A DNA stretch of 13,957 bases from Deltaproteobacteria bacterium (GCA_040218735.1 JAVJQW010000045.1:1-13957); one strand, 5' to 3'; positions 750-11,067 are shown, counted from the stretch's first letter. A program made the numbers and translations. Notes: generated by a model not told the origin, from the sequence alone.

Positions 750-1457
750 TCACCACACGAACGCGCTGTCGCACGACTCGCATCGAATCACTGTGGCCTC
801 CAGCACCTTGCGGCTCGCGCGGATGATGTGCTCGCACTGGCAGGTCGCCTTGACCAGGCGCGAACCCGGACGCTCGTCCTCGCCGCCGCCGGCGTCGTCG
901 CTTCGGTCGGTACCGCGTGCGCTCCCGCCTTGGACACCCCGCGACTTGCCGCCCTTCCCTCCGCTCCGCTGCGCCCGGCCAACGCGCGCGACGAGCGCGG
1001 ACCCGAGCCGATCGATCTGCGTGGCGTAGTGCTTCTTGGTCGCGCGAAGCAGGCTCGTCTCGGAGAAGCCGTAGTGCTCGGTGCGCTCGACGCGCAGCCC
1101 GAGCTCCTCGGCGGCGCGTTGGAAGTGCGCATTGTGGTACTGGCTCGCGGAGCAGTCCGAGACGCCGCGCACGTGGTTGAGCGCGTGCGCCGCTTCGTGC
1201 AGCAGCGTCTCGAACACCGCGTCGGGCTTGCGGTCGAGATACTCCGCGGTCACCACCACCTCGTGCAGGCGCTCGCCGCCCTGCGGCACCCAGCGCAGCG
1301 CGGCGAAGTGGCCGAGGACGCCCGCGCGGTGTGACGGCGCGGGCAACAGCATCACCGGCGGGACCTCGCGGTGCGTGGTGCTGATCGCTTGCCAGGCGTT
1401 GCTCAGCGCCTCGACCAGCTTCACGGCCTCGGGCTTCTTCGCGGTGCTGCGAGGCAT
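750..1457 (-). CDS. SprT-like zinc metalloprotease with C-terminal Zn-ribbon
   Basis: TLLHEAAH (HExxH) followed by QYHNAHF (third His ligand), a Gly-rich linker, and C-terminal CQC...CESC Zn ribbon. Confidence 0.8.
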   Translation of the reverse strand: MPRSTAKKPEAVKLVEALSNAWQAISTTHREVPPVMLLPAPSHRAGVLGHFAALRWVPQGGERLHEVVVTAEYLDRKPDAVFETLLHEAAHALNHVRGVSDCSASQYHNAHFQRAAEELGLRVERTEHYGFSETSLLRATKKHYATQIDRLGSALVARVGRAQRSGGKGGKSRGVQGGSARGTDRSDDAGGGEDERPGSRLVKATCQCEHIIRASRKVLEATVIRCESCDSAFVW

Positions 1458-1477: not shown

Positions 1478-1526
1478 TTCGGCTCCGAAAGCCAAGAGGA
1501 AGCTGATGCGCGACGTCCCGCTCGTC

Positions 1527-1579
1527 GGGCGCGTCCCGCGCCCACTCGCCTGCGAAGCCTGGGGCCCGCTCCGTGGGCC
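1527..1579 (-). other. pair of GGA-loop hairpins 3' of VR1 (candidate DGR target-recognition cruciforms)
   Basis: Coding strand GGCCCAC-GGA-GCGGGCC (1579-1563, one mismatch) and GGGCGCG-GGA-CGCGCCC (1543-1527). Confidence 0.65.
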
Positions 1580-2466
1580 TACTGCCCTTCCAGAGCTCGA
1601 CCTCGGGCAAGCCGGAAGCCGACGACCCCGCCGCGATCGTCGCGGAGGTCCGCGCGGCGGAACGCCGCGCGGACGTACCTCGCGCCGTCGTACCACGAGC
1701 CGCCACGCAAGACGCGGGACGGGCGCTCCCCGGGCGCGAGGTACGGATCATGCTGCGCGTCCGTTGTGTACTCGCGATGCCAACCGTCGGCGCACCACTC
1801 GTCGACGTTCCCCAGCATGTCGTGCAGCCCGAACGCGTTGCGACGCCGCGTCTTCACCCTCCGGGTGCCCGCGCGCTCGTGCGGATACTGCTTCTCCGGC
1901 CAGCTCGACGAATCGTGCGCCTCCTCGAGATCGTAGCCTTCGCCCGAGTTTCCGCCGTACCACGCAAACAGGTCCAGCATCGGCGCGTTGTTGTTGCCCA
2001 GCAGCTCGATGGGTCCGTCGTACGGCGGCGCCTGCATGTTCGCGCGGCACGCGTACTCCCACTCCGCCTCCGTCGGCAGCCGCAGCCCAGGCACGAGCTC
2101 GGACGCCTTCGCCAGGAACGCGTTCGCGTCGTCCCACGAGACGTTCTCGACTGGCCGCCGGGGGTCGACGAAGTGGCTCGGGTTCGAACCCATCACCGCC
2201 TCCCACAATGCCTGCGTGCACGGCGTCTGCCCGAGCCAGAATCCCCGCGAGATCGTGACCGAGTGCTGCGGCCCTTCGTTGTCGCGCCGCACCGGCTCGC
2301 CGTCCGCCGAGCCCATCGTGAACGTCCCGGGCGGGATCCACCGCAGGATGTGCTCCACGCCGCCGATCTCGAACCCAACCCAAACGCCCTGCCGATCCTC
2401 GCCCCACGAAGAGGCCCACTCAGGCGGGATGCCGTCGTCGAGCGGGTTGAGGCGATCTTCGTTCAC
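1579..2466 (-). CDS. stand-alone FGE-sulfatase (formylglycine-generating-enzyme-like, CLec-fold) domain protein; DGR target 1
   Basis: Motifs RWIPPGTFTMGS, PVENVSWDDA, LRLPTEAEWEYACRA, NAFGLHDMLGNVDEWC, RGGSW...GFRLAR. Likely start GTG 2466 (GGGGTG upstream). The ORF-track start at 2736 lies inside the TR. Confidence 0.88.
   Translation of the reverse strand: MNEDRLNPLDDGIPPEWASSWGEDRQGVWVGFEIGGVEHILRWIPPGTFTMGSADGEPVRRDNEGPQHSVTISRGFWLGQTPCTQALWEAVMGSNPSHFVDPRRPVENVSWDDANAFLAKASELVPGLRLPTEAEWEYACRANMQAPPYDGPIELLGNNNAPMLDLFAWYGGNSGEGYDLEEAHDSSSWPEKQYPHERAGTRRVKTRRRNAFGLHDMLGNVDEWCADGWHREYTTDAQHDPYLAPGERPSRVLRGGSWYDGARYVRAAFRRADLRDDRGGVVGFRLARGRALEGQ
1602..1727 (-). repeat. DGR variable repeat VR1
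   Basis: 126 bp, ungapped against TR 2628-2753; 18 mismatches, all at TR adenines (coding strand). Encodes PSRVLRGGSWYDGARYVRAAFRRADLRDDRGGVVGFRLAR. Confidence 0.95.
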
Positions 2467-2627
2467 GCCGGCACCCCAACGTCGAGATGGCCGGTGCGCT
2501 CTCGCCGCGGCATCCACACGCGGGTACGCACGCACCAGCCTCCCACTTCCTTTTCGCTCCGCCGCACGATGCGACGAAGACAGGATGAAGATCGGGTCGA
2601 GCCCGGGTCGCCTGACCCACGCTCGCG
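2467..2627 (-). ncRNA. structured spacer 3' of TR (putative DGR RNA priming/structural region)
   Basis: Fold-back hairpin 2595-2628 and long stem GGCUGGUGCG/CGCACCGGCC (2540-2531 with 2498-2489) with inner CCGCG/CGCGG. The U-G wobble works only on the minus-strand transcript. Confidence 0.55.
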
Positions 2628-2753
2628 CTCGGGCAAGCCGGAAGCCGACGTTCTCGTTGCGATTGTCGCGGTGGTTCGCGTTGCGGTACGCCGCGCGGAC
2701 GTTCCTCGCGTTGTCGTTCCACGAGCCGCCACGCATGACGCGGTTCGGGCGCT
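2628..2753 (-). repeat. DGR template repeat (TR)
   Basis: Lies just 3' of the RT stop. Reads KRPNRVMRGGSWNDNARNVRAAYRNANHRDNRNENVGFRLAR with 8 AAC + 1 AAT codons and 27 adenines. Differs from the three VRs almost only at adenines. 3' end GAGCGCGAGC (IMH*) versus GAGGTCGAGC (IMH) in all VRs. Confidence 0.95.
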
Positions 2754-2800
2754 TCGGACCTTCACCCCGGCGGGATTGTCGAGCCTGCGCCGCCCCACGT

Positions 2801-3805
2801 CTACGCCTCCGCCGTCGGCGCGCGCTCGAGGTCGGCGCGCCGAAAGCCGCTGGCCTCCGCGTGGGCGGTGATGGCGAACGCCGCGTCGTAGGCGCGCTGC
2901 AGCGCGAGCGCGTCGAGCACTCCTTCGCGGTAGAGCGCCTCCCACGCCCTTCGGGACCGTGCGTAGCGGCGCATGCGCCGGCGCGACAGCTTCAGCACGC
3001 CGGGATAGATACGAAAGCCGAGGAACGAGAGCCCCGCGTGGCTCCGCTGCACGAAGCCTGGCCCCTTCGGGCGGAGATCGAGCACCTCCTGCAGGAGCAT
3101 CGCCGCCATCGTCCGAACGCGCTCCGCCTCCGCGCGCGTCTGCGTCCACGCGACCACGTCGTCCATGTAGCGGACGTAGCCTCGCACGCGGCCGTCCTCG
3201 GCGAGGCACCGGTCGAGCGGCGCGAGGTAGAAGTTCGCGAAGCTCTGCGACGTCAGCGACCCGATCGGGAGCCCGCGCCCCGCACCGAAGCCCCGGACGA
3301 TGCGGCGCACCAGTGCCCGCACTTCGCGGTCTTTCAGCTTGCGATCCAACGCCGTGCACAACCGGTCGTGGGGGATGCTCGCGAAGTACTTCGCGACATC
3401 GAGCTTCACGTACCAGGGCCAGCGCCGCGTGTGCACCTGCGCGCGCTGGACCGCGGCGAGGCTCCCCTTCCCGACGCGGCACGCGAACGTGTCGTCGACG
3501 AGGGCGCGGTCGAGCGTCGGTCCGATCGCGGCCATCAAGGCGTGGTGCACCACGCGGTCCTCGAACACCGGCGCGTGGATGACGCGCGGCTTCGGATCGC
3601 GAATGGAGAACCGTCGATACACATGGCTCGGGGCCGTTCCTTGGCGGAGGCCGTCGCCGAGCGCGGCCAGGTTGTCGTACGGCCGTCCGCGGAAGCGCTC
3701 CACGTCCTCGCGGCCCGTCTTGCCGCGCGCGGCGCGATGAAAGGCCGAGGCGAGCGCGCCGAGGTTCGCGACGTCGTCGAGCGTCGCGCGGCAGCGCTGT
3801 ACCAT
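2801..3805 (-). CDS. DGR reverse transcriptase (~334 aa)
   Basis: KPRVIHAPVFEDRVVHHAL, KLDVAKYFASIPH, GLPIGSLTSQSFANFYL (DGR-type SQ motif), YVRYMDD catalytic motif, FLGFRI. Start ATG 3805 overlaps the hrdc stop (TGATG). No maturase or endonuclease extension. Confidence 0.95.
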   Translation of the reverse strand: MVQRCRATLDDVANLGALASAFHRAARGKTGREDVERFRGRPYDNLAALGDGLRQGTAPSHVYRRFSIRDPKPRVIHAPVFEDRVVHHALMAAIGPTLDRALVDDTFACRVGKGSLAAVQRAQVHTRRWPWYVKLDVAKYFASIPHDRLCTALDRKLKDREVRALVRRIVRGFGAGRGLPIGSLTSQSFANFYLAPLDRCLAEDGRVRGYVRYMDDVVAWTQTRAEAERVRTMAAMLLQEVLDLRPKGPGFVQRSHAGLSFLGFRIYPGVLKLSRRRMRRYARSRRAWEALYREGVLDALALQRAYDAAFAITAHAEASGFRRADLERAPTAEA

Positions 3806-4281
3806 CAGGACACCACCGTCGGGAGGAGGAGCTCGCGCAGCAGCCCGAGGAACGCGGCGCCGTACTTGTCGACACGCCGTTCGCTCACGCCCGAGATGCG
3901 TCCGAGCGCCGCCTTCGAGGTCATGCGGTCCGTCACCATCTGCGCGAGCTGCTCGTTCGTGAACACGGAGTAGAGAGGCACGCCCGCTTCTGCGGCCTTG
4001 CGCTTTCGCAGCTCGCGAAGTCGCGCGAACACCGCGAAGTCCGACTCCGAAAGCACCTCGCGATAGTCCACCTTCGGTGACCGCGACGTCGTCGTCGTCG
4101 TCGTTTCCTCCGCCCTCGCGGCATCGGCGTAGGTGACACAGATGGCCCACGTCGCCGCGCCGTGCTCCGTCACGAGGTGACGGTCGACCGCCAACACGTT
4201 GCGCTGCGCGAGGAACTTGTTGAGGGCTTCCCAGCCCGGACGTGGGTCGAGGACGGGGATAGTGAAGAATTCGAGTTTCAT
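3805..4281 (-). CDS. HRDC-domain DGR accessory protein
   Basis: C-terminal FARLRELRKRKAAEAGVPLYSVFTNEQLAQM...ALGRISGVSERRVDKYGAAFL is an HRDC domain. Translationally coupled to the RT; hrdc is a known DGR accessory gene class. Confidence 0.88.
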   Translation of the reverse strand: MKLEFFTIPVLDPRPGWEALNKFLAQRNVLAVDRHLVTEHGAATWAICVTYADAARAEETTTTTTSRSPKVDYREVLSESDFAVFARLRELRKRKAAEAGVPLYSVFTNEQLAQMVTDRMTSKAALGRISGVSERRVDKYGAAFLGLLRELLLPTVVS

Positions 4282-4316
4282 CGGCAGCCATAGCGAATCG
4301 CGGACCGTGACGCCTC

Positions 4317-4469
4317 CGCCGGCGCGTCCCGCGCCGGCGCTCGGGACGGCTCCGCCGTCGGTCCTCCGAGCGACCCAGGAGCGTGTCCATGCATCGCCTC
4401 AGCCACGACTGTTCTTGCGTAACCCCTCCGGGCTCGGCGGCTCCGCCACGGGGACTCCCCCTCCGGGGG
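4317..4469 (-). other. cluster of GGA-loop hairpins 3' of VR2
   Basis: Coding strand CCCCC-GGA-GGGGG (4469-4457), GTGGC-GGA-GCCGC (4449-4437), GACGGC-GGA-GCCGTC (4359-4345) and CGCCGGCGCG-GGA-CGCGCCGGCG (4339-4317, 10-bp stem). Confidence 0.65.
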
Positions 4470-7400
4470 CTCGACCTCGGGCAAGCCGGAACCCGACGCC
4501 CGCGTGGCGAAAGTCGCGGTGGGAGGCGCGGCGGTACGCCGCGCGGACGTACCGCGCGCTGCCGACCCACGAGCCGCCACGCGAGACGCGGCTCGGGCGC
4601 TCCCCTGGCTCCGCCAGGGGGTCAGTGACAGGAGCGTCCGGGTACGGATCAGGCCTGCCATCGGCTCCGTCAGCGCACCACTCCCAGATATTCCCCAGCA
4701 TGTCGTATAGGCCCCACGGGTTCGGGATCTTGGTTCGCACGGCACGCGTCCCAGCCTTCGGGGTCGGGTACTGCATTTCGCCCCAGTCCGAGGTGTCGTG
4801 CCCCTCCTCGAGGTCGTAGCCCTGGCCGCTGTTGCCTCCGTACAAAGCGATGGCGTCGAGCGCCGGAGCGTTGCGATCGCCGAGAATCTCGATCGGCCCG
4901 CCGTAAGTCGCCGCCGTGGTCCCTGCGCGGCACGCATACTCCCACTCCGCCTCGGTCGGCAGCCGCAGCGCCAGCTCGACGTGCTGTCGGTTCAGCGCCG
5001 CCATGAACGCCACCGCATCGTCCCACGACACGTTCTCCACCGGCCGGTCGCGGGTTCGAAAGCGACTCGGGTTGGCCTCCTTGCCGAGCACCGCCTCGTA
5101 GAGCGCCTGCGTGCACGGCGTCTCCGCCAGCCAGTAACCCTGGGTCAGCGTGACTTGGTGCTGCTTCTCTCGATTGAAGCGCCCCGGTTCGTCTTCGGGC
5201 GAACCCATCATGAAGCGGCCCGGCGGAATCCAACGCATCCGGATCACCTCCGGCACCACCCGCGTCTCCACCTCGACGTCCGCGAACAGTCCGAACCGAT
5301 CGCGCCCGACTCCCGAAGCCCACTCGGGTCGTTCGAAGGGTTCAAGATCGAGCGACACGAGATCGGTCTCGAGCCGAACCGGCGCGCGCAGATCGATCGG
5401 GATGCGCGTGTCGGCGTCCAGCCGAACGCTGCGGATCACGTGCGGCTCGGTCTCGCGCGTCCCGCGCGGCCCGGCCGAGCTGGAGCTGGAAGCCGGCTCC
5501 GCCGGCCCCGGACTGGACTGGGCTCGACCTCGGGCAAGCCGGAAGCCGACGTGCTCGAGGCGATCGTCGCGGTGGAACGCGTAGCGGAACGCCGCGCGGA
5601 CGCTCCTCGCGAAGTCGAGCCACGAGCCGCCACGCATGACGCGGTACGGGCGCTCCCCTGGCTCCGCCAGGGGGTCCGTGACGGGGCCGTCGGGGTACGG
5701 ATCAGGCTCGCCCCAGCCCTTCGCCCCGTCGGCGCACCACTCGCGGACGTTCCCGAGCATGTCGTGCAGGCCCCATGCGTTGGGCTCGCGGGTCTTGACG
5801 TCGTGGGTCTCGCCCTCGCTGTTCTCGGCGTACCAAGCGACTGCACCCAACGGGCCATAGGGCGCCTCAGCGGAGCCGGCGCGACACGCGCGCTCCCACT
5901 GCGCCTCGGTGGGTAGAACGAGGTCGAGCCCCGGGACCTGCGCGTTCAGCGTCGCCAGGAAGACTTGCACGTCGTCGAAGCTCACTTGCTCGACGGGTCG
6001 CTGAGGCCCCTTGAAGCCGGACGGCTCGTCGTTCATCACCGCCGACCAAAGCGCCTGCGTGCACGGCGTCTCGGCCAACCAATACCCCTCGCTCAACGTC
6101 ACCTCGTGCTGTGTCTCGCCTTCGTGGCGCTCCTCCTCGTCCTCGGGTGAACCCATCAGGAACGTCCCGCCCGGGATCCACCGCATCACCTGCTCAACGC
6201 CCGCGACCTCGAACGATGCCCAGCGGCCGAACTGGTCGTTGCCCCCTCGGCTCGCCCACGCTGGCGCGAGCCGCTCCACGCGGAGCTTCGAACGCGTCGC
6301 CCGAAGGTCGATCGGCGAGTCCAGCACCGAGCCCAGCGACGTCAGGAACCCACCGCGCACATAGAGTCGGTGCGTCGCGCTCGCCGGCACGCCGGAGACC
6401 CGTCGCCCGTCGACGAGGTGCTGGAGGCGCCGGACCCATCGGCCCATGGCCTCGTCCGCCTCGAAGTCGATCTCGCCCTTGCGCTCGTCGAGGTGCTCGT
6501 ACCACGCCAGGGCCCGGTCTCTGTCGGTAGCGCCAAAGGTGCCGGTCTCCAGCGCCCGCGTGAGCTTCTCCAGATGGAGGTGCGCGGCGCGGCGCGCGTC
6601 CTCGGGGACGAGGTGGGCCTGGCCCATCGCGAGCAGGCCGAGGTACGTCTCGACCCAGACCTGCGCTGCGGTCGCGGACGCCGCCAAACGCTCGACGGCG
6701 GCGCGGCGGACGCCTACATCTCGCGCGAGGAAGCCAGCTCGAAGCGCGGCACGCGCCTTGTTGCCGATGCGCGCGCGCCCGGTGATGGTGTGGCGGACAC
6801 GTGTGTCGTGCCAAGCGGCGCACTCCACCGCTGTGCTCCGTTCGCTCGTCGCCGCTCGGAGTCCGACTGCGTCGAAGACCACCGCGAAGGACATCAGCTC
6901 CAGAACGGCCGTGACCTCCTCGTGCGATACTGTCTCTACATCCGAGACCGACCGCCAAGGTGGCGGCACGCGACGCCGACCGAGCGATAGCATCAGCGTA
7001 GGTGTTCGATGCCTCGCGAGAGACCGACCCAACGCGGACCACGGAGACCGTCGCCTTGGCTCGGCGAGCGCCAAGAAGCGGTCGGGCGAACTCGCGACCG
7101 CCGCGACCGCCTGAGCCGTGAGCCCACACGGACCGTCCGGCAGGTACTCGACGACAACGCGCTCATGACCAAACGCACGAACGAGGCCGTCGAGGATCAC
7201 TTCGTAGTCCGCCGCGAAGGGGCGCGCGTCCGAGGTGTCGTCGACGAGCACCCAAACACGACCCTCGAGGTGCCGGACACGCTCGCGCGGAATTGGGTCG
7301 ATCGGGCGGCACGTGGCGTAGCGATCGACGAGCTCAATCGTGTCCACGGCTCCCCACGAAGCGTCCCCCGTGAGCAGACGACGAAGCTTCGACGCCCAAT

Positions 7401-7734
7401 CCTCCCACCGCACGCGTGGAGGCGGCACCGCGGGCGGGGGAGACGGGGCATGAAGCTCACGGGGAGTCATCGTCGGACCATTCCGACCGGCGAGCGGTTG
7501 AGAGGGATCCTCGAACTCGACGCGGCGAACGACACGTACGAAGGTCGCAGACGGCAACCGCTCCGACTCTGGCTCGAGCCCGGACGATCGGAGGTGCTCC
7601 ACACGAGAATTCGGAGCCGGGAGGACGACGCGGGGGTGATGGCTCATCCCGAGCATCGGCGCCACCCGGATGACCTCGTCGCGGTCCATCCGCACGAGCA
7701 TCCGGAGGAGGTCCGCTCGCCCGATCGTCTTCAC
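4399..7734 (-). CDS. ternary-system vWA component: degenerate vWA-like N-terminus, helical region, two tandem FGE-sulfatase (CLec) domains, each with a DGR VR (1111 aa)
   Basis: GTG start overlaps the MoxR stop (GTGA). GAVDTIELVDRYA...PIPRER then VWVLVDDTSDARPF resembles the vWA strand-1/MIDAS region in degenerate form. Two complete FGE domains at about 6265-5520 and 5335-4470. Confidence 0.85.
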   Translation of the reverse strand: MKTIGRADLLRMLVRMDRDEVIRVAPMLGMSHHPRVVLPAPNSRVEHLRSSGLEPESERLPSATFVRVVRRVEFEDPSQPLAGRNGPTMTPRELHAPSPPPAVPPPRVRWEDWASKLRRLLTGDASWGAVDTIELVDRYATCRPIDPIPRERVRHLEGRVWVLVDDTSDARPFAADYEVILDGLVRAFGHERVVVEYLPDGPCGLTAQAVAAVASSPDRFLALAEPRRRSPWSALGRSLARHRTPTLMLSLGRRRVPPPWRSVSDVETVSHEEVTAVLELMSFAVVFDAVGLRAATSERSTAVECAAWHDTRVRHTITGRARIGNKARAALRAGFLARDVGVRRAAVERLAASATAAQVWVETYLGLLAMGQAHLVPEDARRAAHLHLEKLTRALETGTFGATDRDRALAWYEHLDERKGEIDFEADEAMGRWVRRLQHLVDGRRVSGVPASATHRLYVRGGFLTSLGSVLDSPIDLRATRSKLRVERLAPAWASRGGNDQFGRWASFEVAGVEQVMRWIPGGTFLMGSPEDEEERHEGETQHEVTLSEGYWLAETPCTQALWSAVMNDEPSGFKGPQRPVEQVSFDDVQVFLATLNAQVPGLDLVLPTEAQWERACRAGSAEAPYGPLGAVAWYAENSEGETHDVKTREPNAWGLHDMLGNVREWCADGAKGWGEPDPYPDGPVTDPLAEPGERPYRVMRGGSWLDFARSVRAAFRYAFHRDDRLEHVGFRLARGRAQSSPGPAEPASSSSSAGPRGTRETEPHVIRSVRLDADTRIPIDLRAPVRLETDLVSLDLEPFERPEWASGVGRDRFGLFADVEVETRVVPEVIRMRWIPPGRFMMGSPEDEPGRFNREKQHQVTLTQGYWLAETPCTQALYEAVLGKEANPSRFRTRDRPVENVSWDDAVAFMAALNRQHVELALRLPTEAEWEYACRAGTTAATYGGPIEILGDRNAPALDAIALYGGNSGQGYDLEEGHDTSDWGEMQYPTPKAGTRAVRTKIPNPWGLYDMLGNIWEWCADGADGRPDPYPDAPVTDPLAEPGERPSRVSRGGSWVGSARYVRAAYRRASHRDFRHAGVGFRLARGRAPGGGVPVAEPPSPEGLRKNSRG
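4476..4601 (-). repeat. DGR variable repeat VR2 (C-terminal FGE domain)
   Basis: 126 bp versus TR: 21 mismatches, 18 at TR adenines and 3 not (4492, 4525, 4583). Encodes PSRVSRGGSWVGSARYVRAAYRRASHRDFRHAGVGFRLAR. Confidence 0.92.
5454..5506 (-). other. pair of GGA-loop hairpins 3' of VR3, inside the coding interdomain linker
   Basis: GCCGGC-GGA-GCCGGC (5506-5492) and CGCGCG-GGA-CGCGCG (5468-5454). Same order and similar spacing as after VR1. Confidence 0.65.
5529..5654 (-). repeat. DGR variable repeat VR3 (internal FGE domain)
   Basis: 126 bp versus TR: 14 mismatches, all at TR adenines. Encodes PYRVMRGGSWLDFARSVRAAFRYAFHRDDRLEHVGFRLAR. Confidence 0.95.
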
Positions 7735-8762
7735 GTCTCGTGTTTCGCGTTCTTATCGAAGAAGAACTCGCCAACGTCGTCGAGGAGCTCCTCCCGCGCC
7801 TTCGACACGCTGACGCCCCGCCTCTTCGCCTCGACGGGACCCAGGACGACGAGCGTGCGAAGGAGGTCGATGAGCTCGGCTTGTCCAGGAGCCGCAAGCC
7901 CGAGATCCGACAAACGCTTGCGGTCCGTGGCGAGCTGCTTCGCCGCCGTGCGTACGAGGTCGTCGCTGAGGATCGCCGCGTCGGGGAAGTGCGCGCGCCC
8001 CCTGTCGAACAGCCAATCCTCGTAGCCGTCGCCCTTCCCCATTCGGTGCACGACGCAGCGACGGAGGAACGCCTTGGGCAAGGTCCGCTCTTCGTTCGTG
8101 GTAATGACGACGAGCGGCGGGACGCCGGGCTGGGCCACCTCTTCGAAGCCCAGCGCATCGAAGCGACGTTCACCCAATGCTTCGAGCAAGCCGTTGGGGA
8201 CGGACTCCTCGGCCTTATCGATCTCGTCGATCAGGACCACGACGCCGTCGCGCTTCGCGTCGAACGCGTCCGGGTGCCAGGGTCGTTCGAGCGTCTCCAG
8301 TCGCTCGTCACCCGCGCTCGGCGGCTCCCCGAAGCGCGCACGAAAGCGCTGCTCCGTAGCTCCTTGCCAGTCGAACGCCCACCACAGCACCCCCGGCTCC
8401 ACGAAGTAGCGCTCCTCGAGCAACACCTCGTCCTTGAATTTCGGCGTCGCCTGAAGCTGCGCCCTCGCCAGGCGTCGAACGGCGTCATACGTGTACAGGA
8501 GGTCCCGCGACTCCGTCCGGGCGTCGACGACCTTCGAGACGAAGGCGCGACCCGTGTGCACCGCGGCAGCGCGGGCGAGCTGGCTCTTGCCGACGCCCGG
8601 GAGTCCACGGAGCAGGAGTGGTCTCGAGGCTGCGAGCGCGGCGTTGACGGCGCGGATGTCCTGCGCGTCGAAGACGTGTGGACACGCTTCGCGCCCGCCA
8701 ATGGGAGGCAGCGCATAGCGCTCATCGGGCTCGACCTCGAGCAAGCGGGGGGTATCGGTCAC
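7731..8762 (-). CDS. MoxR-family AAA+ ATPase
   Basis: Walker A GLPGVGKS, Walker B VVLIDEIDKA, sensor-1/Arg finger VITTNEERTLPKAFLRRC, and YTYDAVRRLARAQ insert. GTGA overlaps at both ends. Confidence 0.93.
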   Translation of the reverse strand: MTDTPRLLEVEPDERYALPPIGGREACPHVFDAQDIRAVNAALAASRPLLLRGLPGVGKSQLARAAAVHTGRAFVSKVVDARTESRDLLYTYDAVRRLARAQLQATPKFKDEVLLEERYFVEPGVLWWAFDWQGATEQRFRARFGEPPSAGDERLETLERPWHPDAFDAKRDGVVVLIDEIDKAEESVPNGLLEALGERRFDALGFEEVAQPGVPPLVVITTNEERTLPKAFLRRCVVHRMGKGDGYEDWLFDRGRAHFPDAAILSDDLVRTAAKQLATDRKRLSDLGLAAPGQAELIDLLRTLVVLGPVEAKRRGVSVSKAREELLDDVGEFFFDKNAKHET

Positions 8763-10240
8763 GGTGGGGCCTCGTCGAACAAGGGCGCGATCGTCTCGAG
8801 CATATGCGCCTCGATCGTCAGGATCACGTCATCCTCGGAAGCACGCAAGAACAGGACGTCCAGATCGATCTCAGCGGCTTCGAGTTCGGCTTTGAAGTCC
8901 TCTGCGAACTGCGCATCGACCCGGTCTTCACGAAAAACGACGAGGTATCGGCGCTCTCCACGCTTCGCCTGCTTCTTGGTCGCGCGCGCCATGGCCCTCT
9001 TGAGAATTCCCTGATGCTGGCTAGCTCGATACTGCTTTCGCTGCGCATAGCTCGCGACCGTCTGCGTGACCGCGGCGATCACTTCCTTCGCCTGCGCACC
9101 GCCGGTCATCGCCGTGACGTCCACCTCGAGGCGATGGACAGAGTCGAGCTCGTTCTTGTCCCGTACGAAGTCGGCAGGGCGACCCATGGCAGCGGCCGCC
9201 ATGCACTCCGCGATGGCATTCGAGTAGCCACTACATACGAGAATCGGAGATCCCGCGACGAGCGATTCGGTCACCTCTTCGCCTCGATCTCGCAACCCCA
9301 CAACCCCTGGCAGGAGCGCGCATACCCACCGCGCAAGAACAGCTCGACCTCCGGCTGGTGGGTTCTCGGCGACCTCCTCCACGGTCTCGAGGAGGTCATC
9401 CGGCGATTGCGACTCGCAGGCCTTCCCGAGGTCGACGGGGGTCGTCCTGTCGTCGAGACCGAACGTCTGGCACAGGCGGAGGCGAAGCCACGCGGCCTCC
9501 GCGCCGGAGAGGGCCGCAGCGATCTCGTTGCGCTGCTCCTCGCGGATGCGCGCGTACCGCTCACGACGGGCGTGGCCCAGCTCTTCGGCGGACAGCTCCG
9601 TCGGCGCACCGGGCGCTTCGGAGTCCAGCGCACCGGCACCCGCCAGGAATGGGTGACTTGGCACGGCCCCTCGCAGCGTTCCGACAACGTGGGCGATCGG
9701 AATGATCCAACCCGACTTCGGCTCGGACCTCTCGCGGGAGACGGTCAATCCGGCGAGGTAGAAAACGCCAGCTTCCTCGATGAACACCGGGCCGCCGCTG
9801 AACCCCTTCGCCGTCTCGGCTGCGAGCTGCCAGACCTGCCGTTTCGGGTCGTAGCTGGACAGCTGTGTCGGGTGGGACTCGTAGGATCTGGTCGCTGTTC
9901 CGCGATACCCATGGAGTTGAACGGAGTCTCCGAACGACAAGCCTCGATCCCAGCAGGTCGCCGACAAGCCAAACCTCAGCGGCGCCGCGAGCTCGAGGAA
10001 CACGAAGTCATCTCGCTCGGGAGGCTCATCCATCGGCATTTCGGGCAGGACACGTTGGACTGGGCGCCAGAAGTCAGGCTGGTCGCCGCCCTGAACGTGT
10101 ACGGTCAGGTCTTTCGGATCGCGGCCGACGATGCCGTGCGCGCAGGTCAGAGCGAGGCCGTCCGTGAGGAACACGGCGGAGAGGATCGGTGTGCCGTTCG
10201 CCCGGACTCGGCCGACGAGCAAGCTAGGCCTCTTCGTCAC
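8759..10240 (-). CDS. trypsin-like serine peptidase fused to an uncharacterised C-terminal region (VMAP-position component of a MoxR/vWA ternary system)
   Basis: Catalytic triad motifs LTCAHG, DDFVFLEL and KGFSGGPVF in the first ~190 aa. About 280 aa of helical/alpha-beta C-terminus. Sits directly upstream of MoxR. Confidence 0.8.
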   Translation of the reverse strand: MTKRPSLLVGRVRANGTPILSAVFLTDGLALTCAHGIVGRDPKDLTVHVQGGDQPDFWRPVQRVLPEMPMDEPPERDDFVFLELAAPLRFGLSATCWDRGLSFGDSVQLHGYRGTATRSYESHPTQLSSYDPKRQVWQLAAETAKGFSGGPVFIEEAGVFYLAGLTVSRERSEPKSGWIIPIAHVVGTLRGAVPSHPFLAGAGALDSEAPGAPTELSAEELGHARRERYARIREEQRNEIAAALSGAEAAWLRLRLCQTFGLDDRTTPVDLGKACESQSPDDLLETVEEVAENPPAGGRAVLARWVCALLPGVVGLRDRGEEVTESLVAGSPILVCSGYSNAIAECMAAAAMGRPADFVRDKNELDSVHRLEVDVTAMTGGAQAKEVIAAVTQTVASYAQRKQYRASQHQGILKRAMARATKKQAKRGERRYLVVFREDRVDAQFAEDFKAELEAAEIDLDVLFLRASEDDVILTIEAHMLETIAPLFDEAPP

Positions 10241-10583
10241 CGGGATCGCCTGCCGCCGGGCCCTTGGAAGGCTCGTTCTTCCAGAGCGCTTCGATCTCGA
10301 TCGCCGCCTCTGCCGTTCCTTTCGTCACGATGGGTATGCCAACCTCACCGGCGAACTTCAGCCCGAACTTGACCTTCAACTCGTCAGGGCGGTTGGCCTT
10401 CGTGAAGGCCCCGAGCACGACGTCACACGTCGACGCGATCGATCCCCGGAGTTCCTCGACGGCGTCGATGATCTTGTCGGTGGCGTCGGTCCGTTCGGTC
10501 CCCGAGGAATCGTCCCCAGGGAGCTCGGCGACCCCCTCCTCCACCTCAACGAGGAACTCTCCAACCTTGATGACTCTCCCCAC
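10224..10583 (-). CDS. Trypco1 / CU044_2847-like trypsin-co-occurring protein (~119 aa)
   Basis: PDELKVKFGLKFAGEVGIPIVTKGTAEAAIEIEALW matches the family's PDE..V.FG......G......G..EA...V...W pattern. GTG 10583 has SD GGGAGG; the stop overlaps the trypsin gene start by 17 bp. Confidence 0.78.
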   Translation of the reverse strand: MGRVIKVGEFLVEVEEGVAELPGDDSSGTERTDATDKIIDAVEELRGSIASTCDVVLGAFTKANRPDELKVKFGLKFAGEVGIPIVTKGTAEAAIEIEALWKNEPSKGPAAGDPGDEEA

Positions 10584-10648
10584 AGCACCCTCCCGAAGAG
10601 CCCGAAGGGTATCACGACGTACGTCGCCACATCTCCAGGACGCGACCG

Positions 10649-11038
10649 CTAGAAGGGGATTTCGTTCTCCCCCGGCACCGGCTCGTGCGGCTCGCCGCTC
10701 GTCTTCGAGCCCTCGGCCAGGAACAGCACCCGGTCCGCCTTCACCTCGGTCGTCCAGCGCTTGTTGCCGTTCTTGTCCTCCCACTCGCTGTTCTGCAGGC
10801 GCCCCTCGACGAGGACGCCGCGGCCGCGACGCAGGTGCTCGCCGCACGTCTCGCCCTGCTTTCCCCAGACGACGATGCGGTGCCAGTCGGTCCGCTCCTG
10901 CATCGCGCCGTCGACGTCCTTCCAGCGCTCCGTCGTCGCGATGCGGAAGTTCGCGACGGCCGTTCCGCCCTGCGTGTAGCGCATCTCGGGATCCGCACCG
11001 AGGTTCCCCATCAGCATCACCTTGTTGAAGTTGCTCAT
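10649..11038 (-). CDS. ssb: single-stranded DNA-binding protein (129 aa)
   Basis: [46 protein letters not shown] and acidic tail ENEIPF. SD AAGGAG before ATG 11038. Confidence 0.95.
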
Positions 11039-11067
11039 CCGTAGCTCCTTTCGGTCCTTCGCTTCGT

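Follow-up and report, generated by a model that had tools for sequence, protein, structure and literature searches.

What does a diversity-generating retroelement (DGR) diversify when its targets lie beside a MoxR-type AAA+ ATPase and a trypsin-like protease, and what might such a combination be for? The question is raised by a contig of a Deltaproteobacteria bacterium (GCA_040218735.1), which we analyzed at its full length of 13,957 bp (JAVJQW010000045.1, contig C69 of an 11.6-Mb assembly of 70 contigs that is 96.5% complete); this entire contig, with a G+C content of ~69%, is called the window here. All genes of the locus lie on the minus strand, and its eight parts run from 10583 to 1579 in the order Trypco1, trypsin-like fusion, MoxR, 1111-aa target, HRDC-domain protein, reverse transcriptase (RT), template repeat (TR) and a short target consisting only of a formylglycine-generating enzyme (FGE) domain. 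We propose, at a probability of roughly 60%, that they make up a self-contained 9.2-kb cassette in which the DGR rewrites FGE surfaces that sense invaders and signal through MoxR and a von Willebrand factor type A (vWA)-like module to a protease-licensed Trypco1 pore.

We begin with the retroelement. A repeat search recovered a four-copy family made up of the TR and three variable repeats (VRs), and each of the three FGE-sulfatase domains has a VR at its end. The 133-nt TR core holds 28 adenines and nine AAY codons in the VR frame. Over this core, VRa differs from the TR at 16 positions, 14 of them TR adenines, while the corresponding counts are 18 of 23 for VRb and 18 of 20 for VRc. In the first 120 nt, where 26 of 120 positions are adenine, this enrichment has a hypergeometric P of 1e-11 to 1e-15. 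Each VR has a CG to GT change close to its 3' end that accounts for two of its non-adenine mismatches; these are the only ones in VRa and VRc, and the body of VRb holds three more. The 3' end reads GGTCGAGC in all four VRs, counting the remote copy described below, and GCGCGAGC in the TR, a difference that looks like a pair of initiation of mutagenic homing sites (IMH and IMH*). GC-rich hairpins with GGA loops lie downstream of each VR.

The RT carries IGSLTSQ at 181 and YMDD at 213. The motifs IGxxxSQ and YxDD are hallmarks of DGR-type RTs, and the cassette RT is the sole one of this type in the genome. Directly upstream lies the HRDC gene, coupled to it by TGATG. Taken together, these observations make the local TR/VR system a solid case of a real DGR, and the first-pass annotation, which had proposed a DGR aimed at FGE domains inside a MoxR-centered operon, is borne out. 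Among PDB entries, TvpA of Treponema denticola (2y3c, E 2.6e-41) is closest to the FGE part. From their sequence, and from what is established for TvpA and Mtd-type targets, the FGE domains are predicted to be DGR-diversified binders, with three local ligand-binding surfaces under diversification, two on the long protein and one on the short.

When the whole genome was searched with the TR, one more VR-like copy, the fourth, came to light on contig C52 (43103-43235). It closes a stand-alone FGE gene (L009, 6536-7264) that adjoins a glycosyltransferase. This copy differs from the TR at 28 positions, of which 21 are adenines and five are other non-adenine differences, and it shares the 3' signal and the hairpins; the gene is a probable additional, remote DGR target. 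A further observation concerns the short local target. Its frame (1579-2736) is open upstream through the entire TR to an ATG at 2736, and the listed 385-aa open reading frame (ORF) thus starts with translated TR; the true start of the gene is probably near 2460.

Are the DGR and the MoxR/protease genes parts of one system? The first-pass annotation had described a co-oriented gene string with 17-bp, GTGA, GTGA and TGATG overlaps, and all four were found: a 17-nt overlap between the Trypco1 and protease genes at 10224-10240, provided that the GTG start at 10583, 4 nt past GGGAGGG, is used; GTGA at 8759-8762 between the protease gene and MoxR; GTGA at 7731-7734 between MoxR and the long target; and TGATG at 3803-3807 between HRDC and RT. 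Terminator-like sites number 2, against 3.9 expected, with none above chance within the gene string, and a promoter scan found none. All eight ORFs are open and their catalytic motifs intact, including Walker A (GLPGVGKS53) and Walker B (VVLIDEID175) in MoxR.

Relatives of MoxR allowed us to examine whether this order is conserved. Strong matches (E<=3e-29) occur in four of 19 same-family genomes, and six loci in three of these genomes have MoxR followed by a target with one to three FGE domains, one of them ending with its contig before the FGE part. HRDC, RT and the short FGE gene follow downstream in two of the six; two others have HRDC/RT fragments only and then the short FGE gene, and two are cut by contig ends. 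In one genome, L024 (G015:C568) and L025 (G015:C345) keep MoxR and multi-FGE targets (three and two domains, respectively) with HRDC fragments only (residues 1-50/60), joined in L024 by an RT fragment (residues 270-334); these degenerate loci might be served in trans. We also scanned 185,579 species genomes with a MoxR alignment and kept 80 loci. An FGE domain is encoded downstream of MoxR in 33 of the 80, including nearly all of the 32 closest, and these 33 come from Acidobacteriota, Magnetococcales, Verrucomicrobia, Planctomycetes, Gamma- and Betaproteobacteria and myxobacterial metagenome-assembled genomes (MAGs). HRDC is present in 12 of the 80 and RT in 10, and HRDC lies directly upstream of RT in 10 loci. 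We compared TR and VRs in 11 RT-bearing loci, namely two of the six same-family loci and nine of the 10 RT loci from the scan. In 10 of these 11 a TR lies just after RT and is paired with one to three VRs, with 74-95% of mismatches at adenines; in the eleventh, L064, the share is 45-53%. The full order Trypco1, trypsin, MoxR, target recurs in L048, a Nitrosomonas MAG, and the synteny anticipated by the first-pass annotation is conserved in relatives.

This conservation bears on the explanation under which two separate, unrelated systems, a DGR and a set of MoxR/protease genes, happen to be neighbors. An RT is nearby in only 10 of the 25 FGE-linked loci for which at least 7 kb was fetched after the MoxR start, as such an explanation would have it, but the VR-bearing domains belong to the very protein encoded after MoxR, in every related locus the protein encoded after MoxR is homologous to the N-terminal part of this one, the cassette junctions have overlapping start and stop codons, and the MoxR-to-FGE order spans phyla. 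We therefore regard a chance neighborhood as extremely improbable.

A different doubt is that the cassette is a recently inactivated relic whose genes look intact but whose retrohoming has ceased, leaving the VR differences as historical. The non-adenine differences in VRb (three) and in the remote VR (five) may reflect drift without recent retrohoming, which weighs against an active system, as do the HRDC/RT fragments to which L024 and L025 are reduced and the public contigs, which gave no readable VR variation. The locus occurs in five public run records from two studies, one of them possibly the source, with no RNA run among those listed; the four runs compared consist of assembled contigs only, from which VR population variation cannot be read. 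Among the differences listed, those between run contigs are confined to the flanks and look paralogue-like, and in the second study, among the long pieces listed, the TR and the three VR stretches are uncovered, which could reflect the repeats themselves. The sample of this second study (runs X2-X5) contains 89-91% of the cassette's sampled words and long contig pieces without a single difference, such as 5974-10736, so that the strain, or one nearly identical to it, also occurs elsewhere than in the probable source sample. Eight open ORFs with catalytic motifs, the hairpins kept after the VRs, and the lack in VRa and VRc of any non-adenine difference beyond the 3'-end pair all speak for a working element, and we consider a relic improbable.

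We next turn to the protein on which two of the three VRs lie. Residues 1 to ~450 of the long target form an N-terminal extension, with an alpha/beta domain and a helical domain, that precedes two FGE/C-type-lectin-fold domains. The first-pass annotation had called this protein vWA-FGE-FGE, and several results weigh against the vWA label. No Pfam model matched the first 511 residues at E<=1, and no Pfam vWA was found in 14 relatives or in six related targets. The VWA_2 model matches 34 places in the genome and none in this contig, and hhalign of the extension against 27 VWA_2 domains of the same genome gave 4%. A PDB profile search with the target gave a match confined to the FGE part. In an AlphaFold2 (AF2) model with a predicted local distance difference test (pLDDT) score of 73, residues 85-445 mostly exceed 85 and form an alpha/beta domain of four strands and, after it, a helical bundle; the published criterion for a vWA is a six-stranded Rossmannoid fold in which strands 1 and 4 each end in Asp (Kaur 2020, PMC7159879), so the modeled domain has four strands instead of six. 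The metal ion-dependent adhesion site (MIDAS) motif is degenerate. Foldseek with the AF2 model returned generic Rossmann-like folds only (AdhE, DHQS and others) at template modeling (TM) scores <=0.2, the best match having E 8.9e-4 and TM 0.17. The extension family is rare, with 23 representatives at E<=1e-3 among 1.84 billion.

Profile comparisons tell in favor of the label. A profile covering residues 1-490 was iterated against every ORF in 86 related loci with an inclusion threshold of E<=1e-5, and successive rounds gave 3, 40, 64, 77 and 89 matches, in nearly all loci to the ORF directly after MoxR. The ORFs recovered include those of Streptomyces, Lentzea, Sorangium So ce56 and Nostoc loci, and 22 of 28 such post-MoxR ORFs match Pfam VWA_CoxE. 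When two independently built profiles, one of 25 FGE-linked extensions and one of 23 VWA_CoxE-type proteins, were compared by hhalign, they aligned over 149 columns with 85.6% probability and E 5.6e-6. This alignment lays the target strand VWVLVDDTSDARPF (beta1) on the MIDAS strand LLLIDHKGSMVPF, and D165, the residue that closes strand 1, is almost invariant. The extension is thus most likely a CoxE-type vWA that has diverged strongly and whose MIDAS is degenerate, followed by a helical domain, the link being one of remote homology only. The vWA label accordingly fails by Pfam and Foldseek and gains a profile-profile link to the CoxE type. Such an identity fits the description by Kaur et al. 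of the vWA components of iSTAND systems, which are of the CoxE type and most often carry FGS domains (PMC7159879). Because of its position after MoxR and its probable divergent vWA, we take the long target to be the counterpart of the vWA component of ternary systems.

In four related loci (L075, L080, L084 and L092, at ~10.6-12.5 kb in each), two ORFs that differ in frame share the match to the extension profile. One ORF has the vWA-like part, and the helical part starts a long effector (TIR/STAND/TPR or NACHT/FGE). The frame switches within a few tens of bases, which could mean either two genes or a frameshift.

Upstream of MoxR lies the third component, a fusion of a trypsin-like protease (~residues 1-200) to a C-terminal domain (~residues 217-491). 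The protease motifs are TCAHG32, D77/D78 and GFSGGP146, giving H34, D77/78 and S148, and an Atlas score of 0.98 links the protein to 'Serine protease' clusters. The Trypco1/trypsin partnership named by the first-pass annotation holds, the Trypsin_2 match itself being below the curated cut-off. A phmmer search of the PDB with the protease domain matched no trypsin entry. It returned designed Kelch-like SAKe repeats only, at an i-Evalue of 0.5-2.3 per stretch, which we discarded as an artefact of summed repeats.

The C-terminal domain has few relatives. It is 63% identical to that of another protein, P0004, whose N-terminus shows a weak TIR_2 match (18.5 bits, below cut-off). Residues 201-493 matched no Pfam model at E<=1, a PDB profile search found nothing below E 0.9, and a word-based homologue search recovered only the protein itself, P0004 and one trypsin-NACHT protein. 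Its AF2 model has a pLDDT of 52. Iterated searches reached only L020, with a winged-helix N-terminus, and L021, a faint relation, and hhalign against the C-terminal 320 aa of 28 upstream ORFs gave a merely suggestive 43% (E 2.4e-4, 65 columns). A search seeded from L039 recovered none of 27 other C-terminal regions.

The first-pass annotation had suggested searches with VMAP and iSTAND profiles, and for this component neither assignment survived Pfam, profile or hhalign comparison. An Atlas score of 0.91 to an iSTAND cluster made iSTAND a candidate, which we rejected after a profile in which 11 relatives were combined with L107's true iSTAND protein gave no match at E<=10 and hhalign gave 0.2%. 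Among the matches listed (25 of 27 families), VMAP-C is absent from the third component and from 33 related upstream ORFs, and iSTAND is absent from the Pfam families of the 34 upstream ORFs.

At their N-termini, the 34 ORFs directly upstream of MoxR, ours included, carry TIR_2 (14), SEFIR (5), Trypsin_2 (3), Metallophos (3), and SIR2_2 and PNP_UDP_1 (one each), which is the usual effector repertoire of conflict systems; TCAD9 and a winged helix occur once each. The third components thus appear to follow the logic of variable effector plus adaptor that characterizes VMAP and iSTAND proteins, outside the membership of either family.

What would this protease act on? A 2025 preprint by Evans and colleagues reports experimentally that Trypco1/2 ("Pepco") proteins are pore toxins activated by their trypsin-like protease, and that in SsPepco, of 117 aa, the protease removes a charged, proline-rich tail after the conserved I97 (PMC12642450). 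By that description the cassette Trypco1 resembles SsPepco: it has 119 aa, Ile at position 97, and then a 22-aa tail with eight charged residues and three prolines. Its gene lies directly upstream of the protease gene, overlapping or abutting it. Since Evans et al. found Trypco1/2 to be a protease-activated pore toxin, the protease is more likely a licensing step than a final effector, which narrows the suggestion of the first-pass annotation that it acts as signal or effector. That annotation also knew of no mechanistic characterization of such systems; this is outdated for the Trypco1/protease module and stands for the whole assembly, as our search of the literature on DGRs with MoxR, vWA, trypsin, Trypco1, VMAP and iSTAND found no experimental test of a whole DGR-MoxR system.

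Combining these observations, we suggest the following sequence of events. The hypervariable FGE domains would bind an invader-derived ligand in the cytoplasm, and MoxR and the vWA-like module would turn binding into activation of the protease. The protease would then cut the charged C-terminal tail off a pre-assembled Trypco1 barrel after Ile97, by analogy with the module studied in another sensor context, and the barrel would permeabilize the membrane so that the infected cell dies. Ligand sensing, the role of MoxR and an immune function are the presumed elements of this scheme; what we observed is which genes are present, a TR/VR pattern specific to adenines, and synteny kept in relatives.

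Several findings count against the scheme as a whole. The Trypsin_2 score of the protease, 23.1 bits, is below the cut-off of 27.6. Only three of the 34 upstream ORFs are trypsin-like and profiles find Trypco1 in two of the 86 related loci, which makes the effector arm seen here a minority variant; tblastn found no relatives of Trypco1 or the trypsin fusion in 80 loci. From locus to locus, no likeness was detected among third-component C-terminal regions, and that of our own component matches neither VMAP-C nor iSTAND. The only defence models that PADLOC matched were a generic RT, a DpdF that contains HRDC and, weakly, LmuA.

The order of signaling could also be the reverse. In the original ordering of Kaur et al., as summarized by Doré et al. 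(PMC10907252), the third component, here the protease protein, is the sensor, so that the FGE domains would not be upstream sensors. The extreme divergence of third-component C-terminal regions between loci, as for an arms-race surface, agrees with that model. Trypco1/Pepco is nonetheless the substrate and death effector of the neighboring trypsin-like protease in the account of Evans et al. (PMC12642450), which places the protease downstream, and a DGR investment in FGE surfaces of three to four VRs suits a sensor better than an effector. Because Pepco is turned into a pore toxin by its protease, and Trypco1 here has the matching Ile97 and tail, we favor the signaling direction of Doré et al. 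and consider a protease-borne sensor unlikely, though not negligibly so.

Sensing by the FGE domains need not serve immunity. The same machinery could work in non-immune recognition, whether kin or self/non-self discrimination, developmental cell death in a social bacterium, or regulatory tuning. A winged-helix regulator is the third component in the related locus L020, and Doré et al. describe an HTH (helix-turn-helix) gene that replaces VMAP at one locus, DGR 8, and cite earlier speculation about signal transduction in cyanobacteria (PMC10907252). Kaur et al. report a statistical link of ternary systems with a multicellular habit (PMC7159879). Recognition of kin at the cell surface is made unlikely by the proteins themselves: none in the cassette has a signal peptide or clear membrane segment (maximum 19-residue hydropathy 1.92), and all appear cytoplasmic. 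The TIR, SEFIR, SIR2 and trypsin plus Trypco1 partners in relatives are typical abortive-infection effectors, and carriage as mobile cargo also counts against a non-immune role. Such a role is, on this evidence, unlikely though not negligible, and we retain invader sensing as our preferred interpretation.

That carriage is indicated by the flanks. By blastn, positions 1-1480 and 10650-13957 of the window are 91-94% identical to contig C44 and 90-92% identical to contig C68, two small contigs of the same assembly that have other cargo between the same flanks, which encode a single-stranded DNA-binding protein (SSB) and a SprT-like protein. The cargo of C44 (L007) comprises a DUF6161 membrane protein and a PDZ protein, and that of C68 (L008) a resistance-nodulation-division (RND) efflux triplet, identified from ORF reading only. 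Because the flanks recur with other cargo, the cassette is a discrete cargo unit (Table 1). Homologues of the SprT-like protein occur on 50 plasmid records, and the flanked site has the look of a hotspot for cargo in a repeated element that resembles a plasmid or an integrative and conjugative element (ICE); the copies on C44, C68 and C69 are either paralogues or strain variants. A 960-aa protein with Ig-like matches belongs to the repeated flank and lies outside the cassette. At ~763-820, by its truncated left flank, C68 keeps a 59-nt remnant that is 90% identical to part of the short FGE gene (window 1791-1848), and this copy may once have carried the DGR cassette, since replaced.

Table 1. 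Features of the 13,957-bp window, with the matches that define them.
Feature	Coordinates	Strand	Basis or remark
Cargo cassette limits	1481-10649	none	blastn of flanks recurring on two other contigs
Trypco1 (Pepco-type), 119 aa	10224-10583	-	Pfam PF19493, E 2.7e-17; NCBIfam CU044_2847, E 1.2e-18
Trypsin-like fusion (third component), 493 aa	8759-10240	-	Trypsin_2, residues 23-154, 23.1 bits vs cut-off 27.6
MoxR-type AAA+ ATPase, 343 aa	7731-8762	-	AAA_5, E 2.8e-12
Long DGR target, 1111 aa	4399-7734	-	two FGE-sulfatase stretches, E 3.1e-80
VRa, end of first FGE domain of long target	5522-5654	-	
VRb, end of second FGE domain of long target	4469-4601	-	
HRDC-domain accessory protein, 158 aa	3805-4281	-	PF00570, E 2.9e-18
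DGR reverse transcriptase, 334 aa	2801-3805	-	RVT_1, E 5.7e-12
TR core, 133 nt	2621-2753	-	repeat search and in-register TR/VR comparison
Short FGE-only DGR target, ~293 aa	1579 to ~2460	-	FGE-sulfatase, E 8.8e-49
VRc, end of short target	1595-1727	-	
SprT-like protein	750-1457		flank
SSB	10649-11041		flank
960-aa protein, upstream of SSB	11068-13950		flank; weak Ig-like matches (Big_3_3, Big_13), N-terminal hydrophobic stretch

The profile matches proposed by the first-pass annotation for FGE-sulfatase, AAA_5 and Trypco1 are all present (Table 1). A broader generalization is tempting, and we offer it as a doubtful possibility: DGR-MoxR loci that seem to have no vWA, the clade 5A type of Doré et al., may be true MoxR-vWA ternary systems, with a vWA beyond the reach of Pfam and fast-evolving third-component C-domains outside VMAP and iSTAND, and the copy described here may be a portable 9.2-kb anticipatory immune cassette. 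If so, three to four DGR-rewritten lectin-fold receptors, including short ones free of signaling parts, would gate a trypsin protease through MoxR, and the protease would license a Pepco pore, wiring an antibody-like repertoire to a pyroptosis-like death. Such a cassette would move between hosts as the cargo of a plasmid- or ICE-like element.

How much of this is already known? The first-pass annotation held that the layout may be undescribed, which it is not: the clade 5A-type loci of Doré et al. have the same one (Doré 2024, PMC10907252), and DGRs of the HRDC type correspond to architecture C in Wu et al. 2018 (PMC5758913). The idea of an antigen sensor in adaptive-like immunity is the thesis of Doré et al. 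(PMC10907252), and the link between DGRs and ternary systems is already in Kaur et al. 2020 (PMC7159879). Both the layout and the antigen-sensor idea are therefore in print, and no new concept comes from this locus. What is new is the remote-homology link of a 'domain-less' extension to the CoxE-type vWA, which brings order to how a large group of these loci is classified, together with a third component that is neither VMAP nor iSTAND and the cargo-cassette context. DGR hypermutation as an anticipatory, antibody-like form of bacterial immunity has so far been proposed from genomics alone (Kaur 2020; Doré 2024). With RT, HRDC, TR and three VRs in cis on a discrete 9.2-kb cargo, the cassette is a convenient test case, and the trypsin plus Trypco1/Pepco arm, now with an experimentally known mechanism, provides a clear read-out.

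A close parallel by gene layout is the clade 5A type of Doré et al. (PMC10907252). As described there, MoxR immediately precedes a target whose N-terminal extension lacks any predicted domain, a second short target consists only of a CLec (C-type lectin) domain, Trypco1 and trypsin or TIR effector genes are adjacent, and the proposed role is that of a DGR-diversified antigen sensor; all of these resemble the cassette. The long target here differs in its two tandem FGE domains, which bring the count to three local VRs and one remote candidate, and targets with three tandem CLec domains are described elsewhere in the same paper. DGR 8 of Thiohalocapsa PB-PSB1 has an HTH gene as its third component, whereas the cassette has trypsin and Trypco1.

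The ternary systems of Kaur et al. (PMC7159879) offer two further comparisons. The iSTAND systems share with the cassette the order third component, MoxR, vWA component, a trypsin at the N-terminus of the third component and, probably, a CoxE-type vWA, and FGS/FGE is given as the commonest C-terminal domain of their vWA component (22%). They differ in that the C-domain of the cassette protease shows no relation to iSTAND and the probable vWA is too divergent for Pfam. A true iSTAND example in the gene order of the cassette is L107, a Leptolinea MAG, which reads Trypco1, trypsin-iSTAND, MoxR, VWA_CoxE. The VMAP systems linked to DGRs in cyanobacteria and Gammaproteobacteria (Kaur 2020) likewise have MoxR followed by a vWA component fused to a diversified FGS domain, with Trypco1/2 genes beside trypsin-bearing third components; the cassette is set apart by its third component, there being no VMAP-C among the matches listed for it and the 33 related upstream ORFs.

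Two further systems resemble parts of the cassette. The TvpA DGR of T. denticola likewise has an HRDC accessory gene and a variable protein of FGE fold, but TvpA is a surface lipoprotein of a host-associated spirochaete, and its DGR comes without a MoxR/protease operon. SsPepco-SsAvs4 of Streptomyces subrutilus encodes a small protein of the same size class (~117-119 aa) just upstream of a trypsin-like protease, and FGE is among the sensors that Evans et al. report as fused to Pepco-associated proteases (PMC12642450). There, the Avs4 STAND ATPase sensor shares a polypeptide with the protease, whereas in the cassette sensing would sit on a separate protein and be relayed by MoxR.

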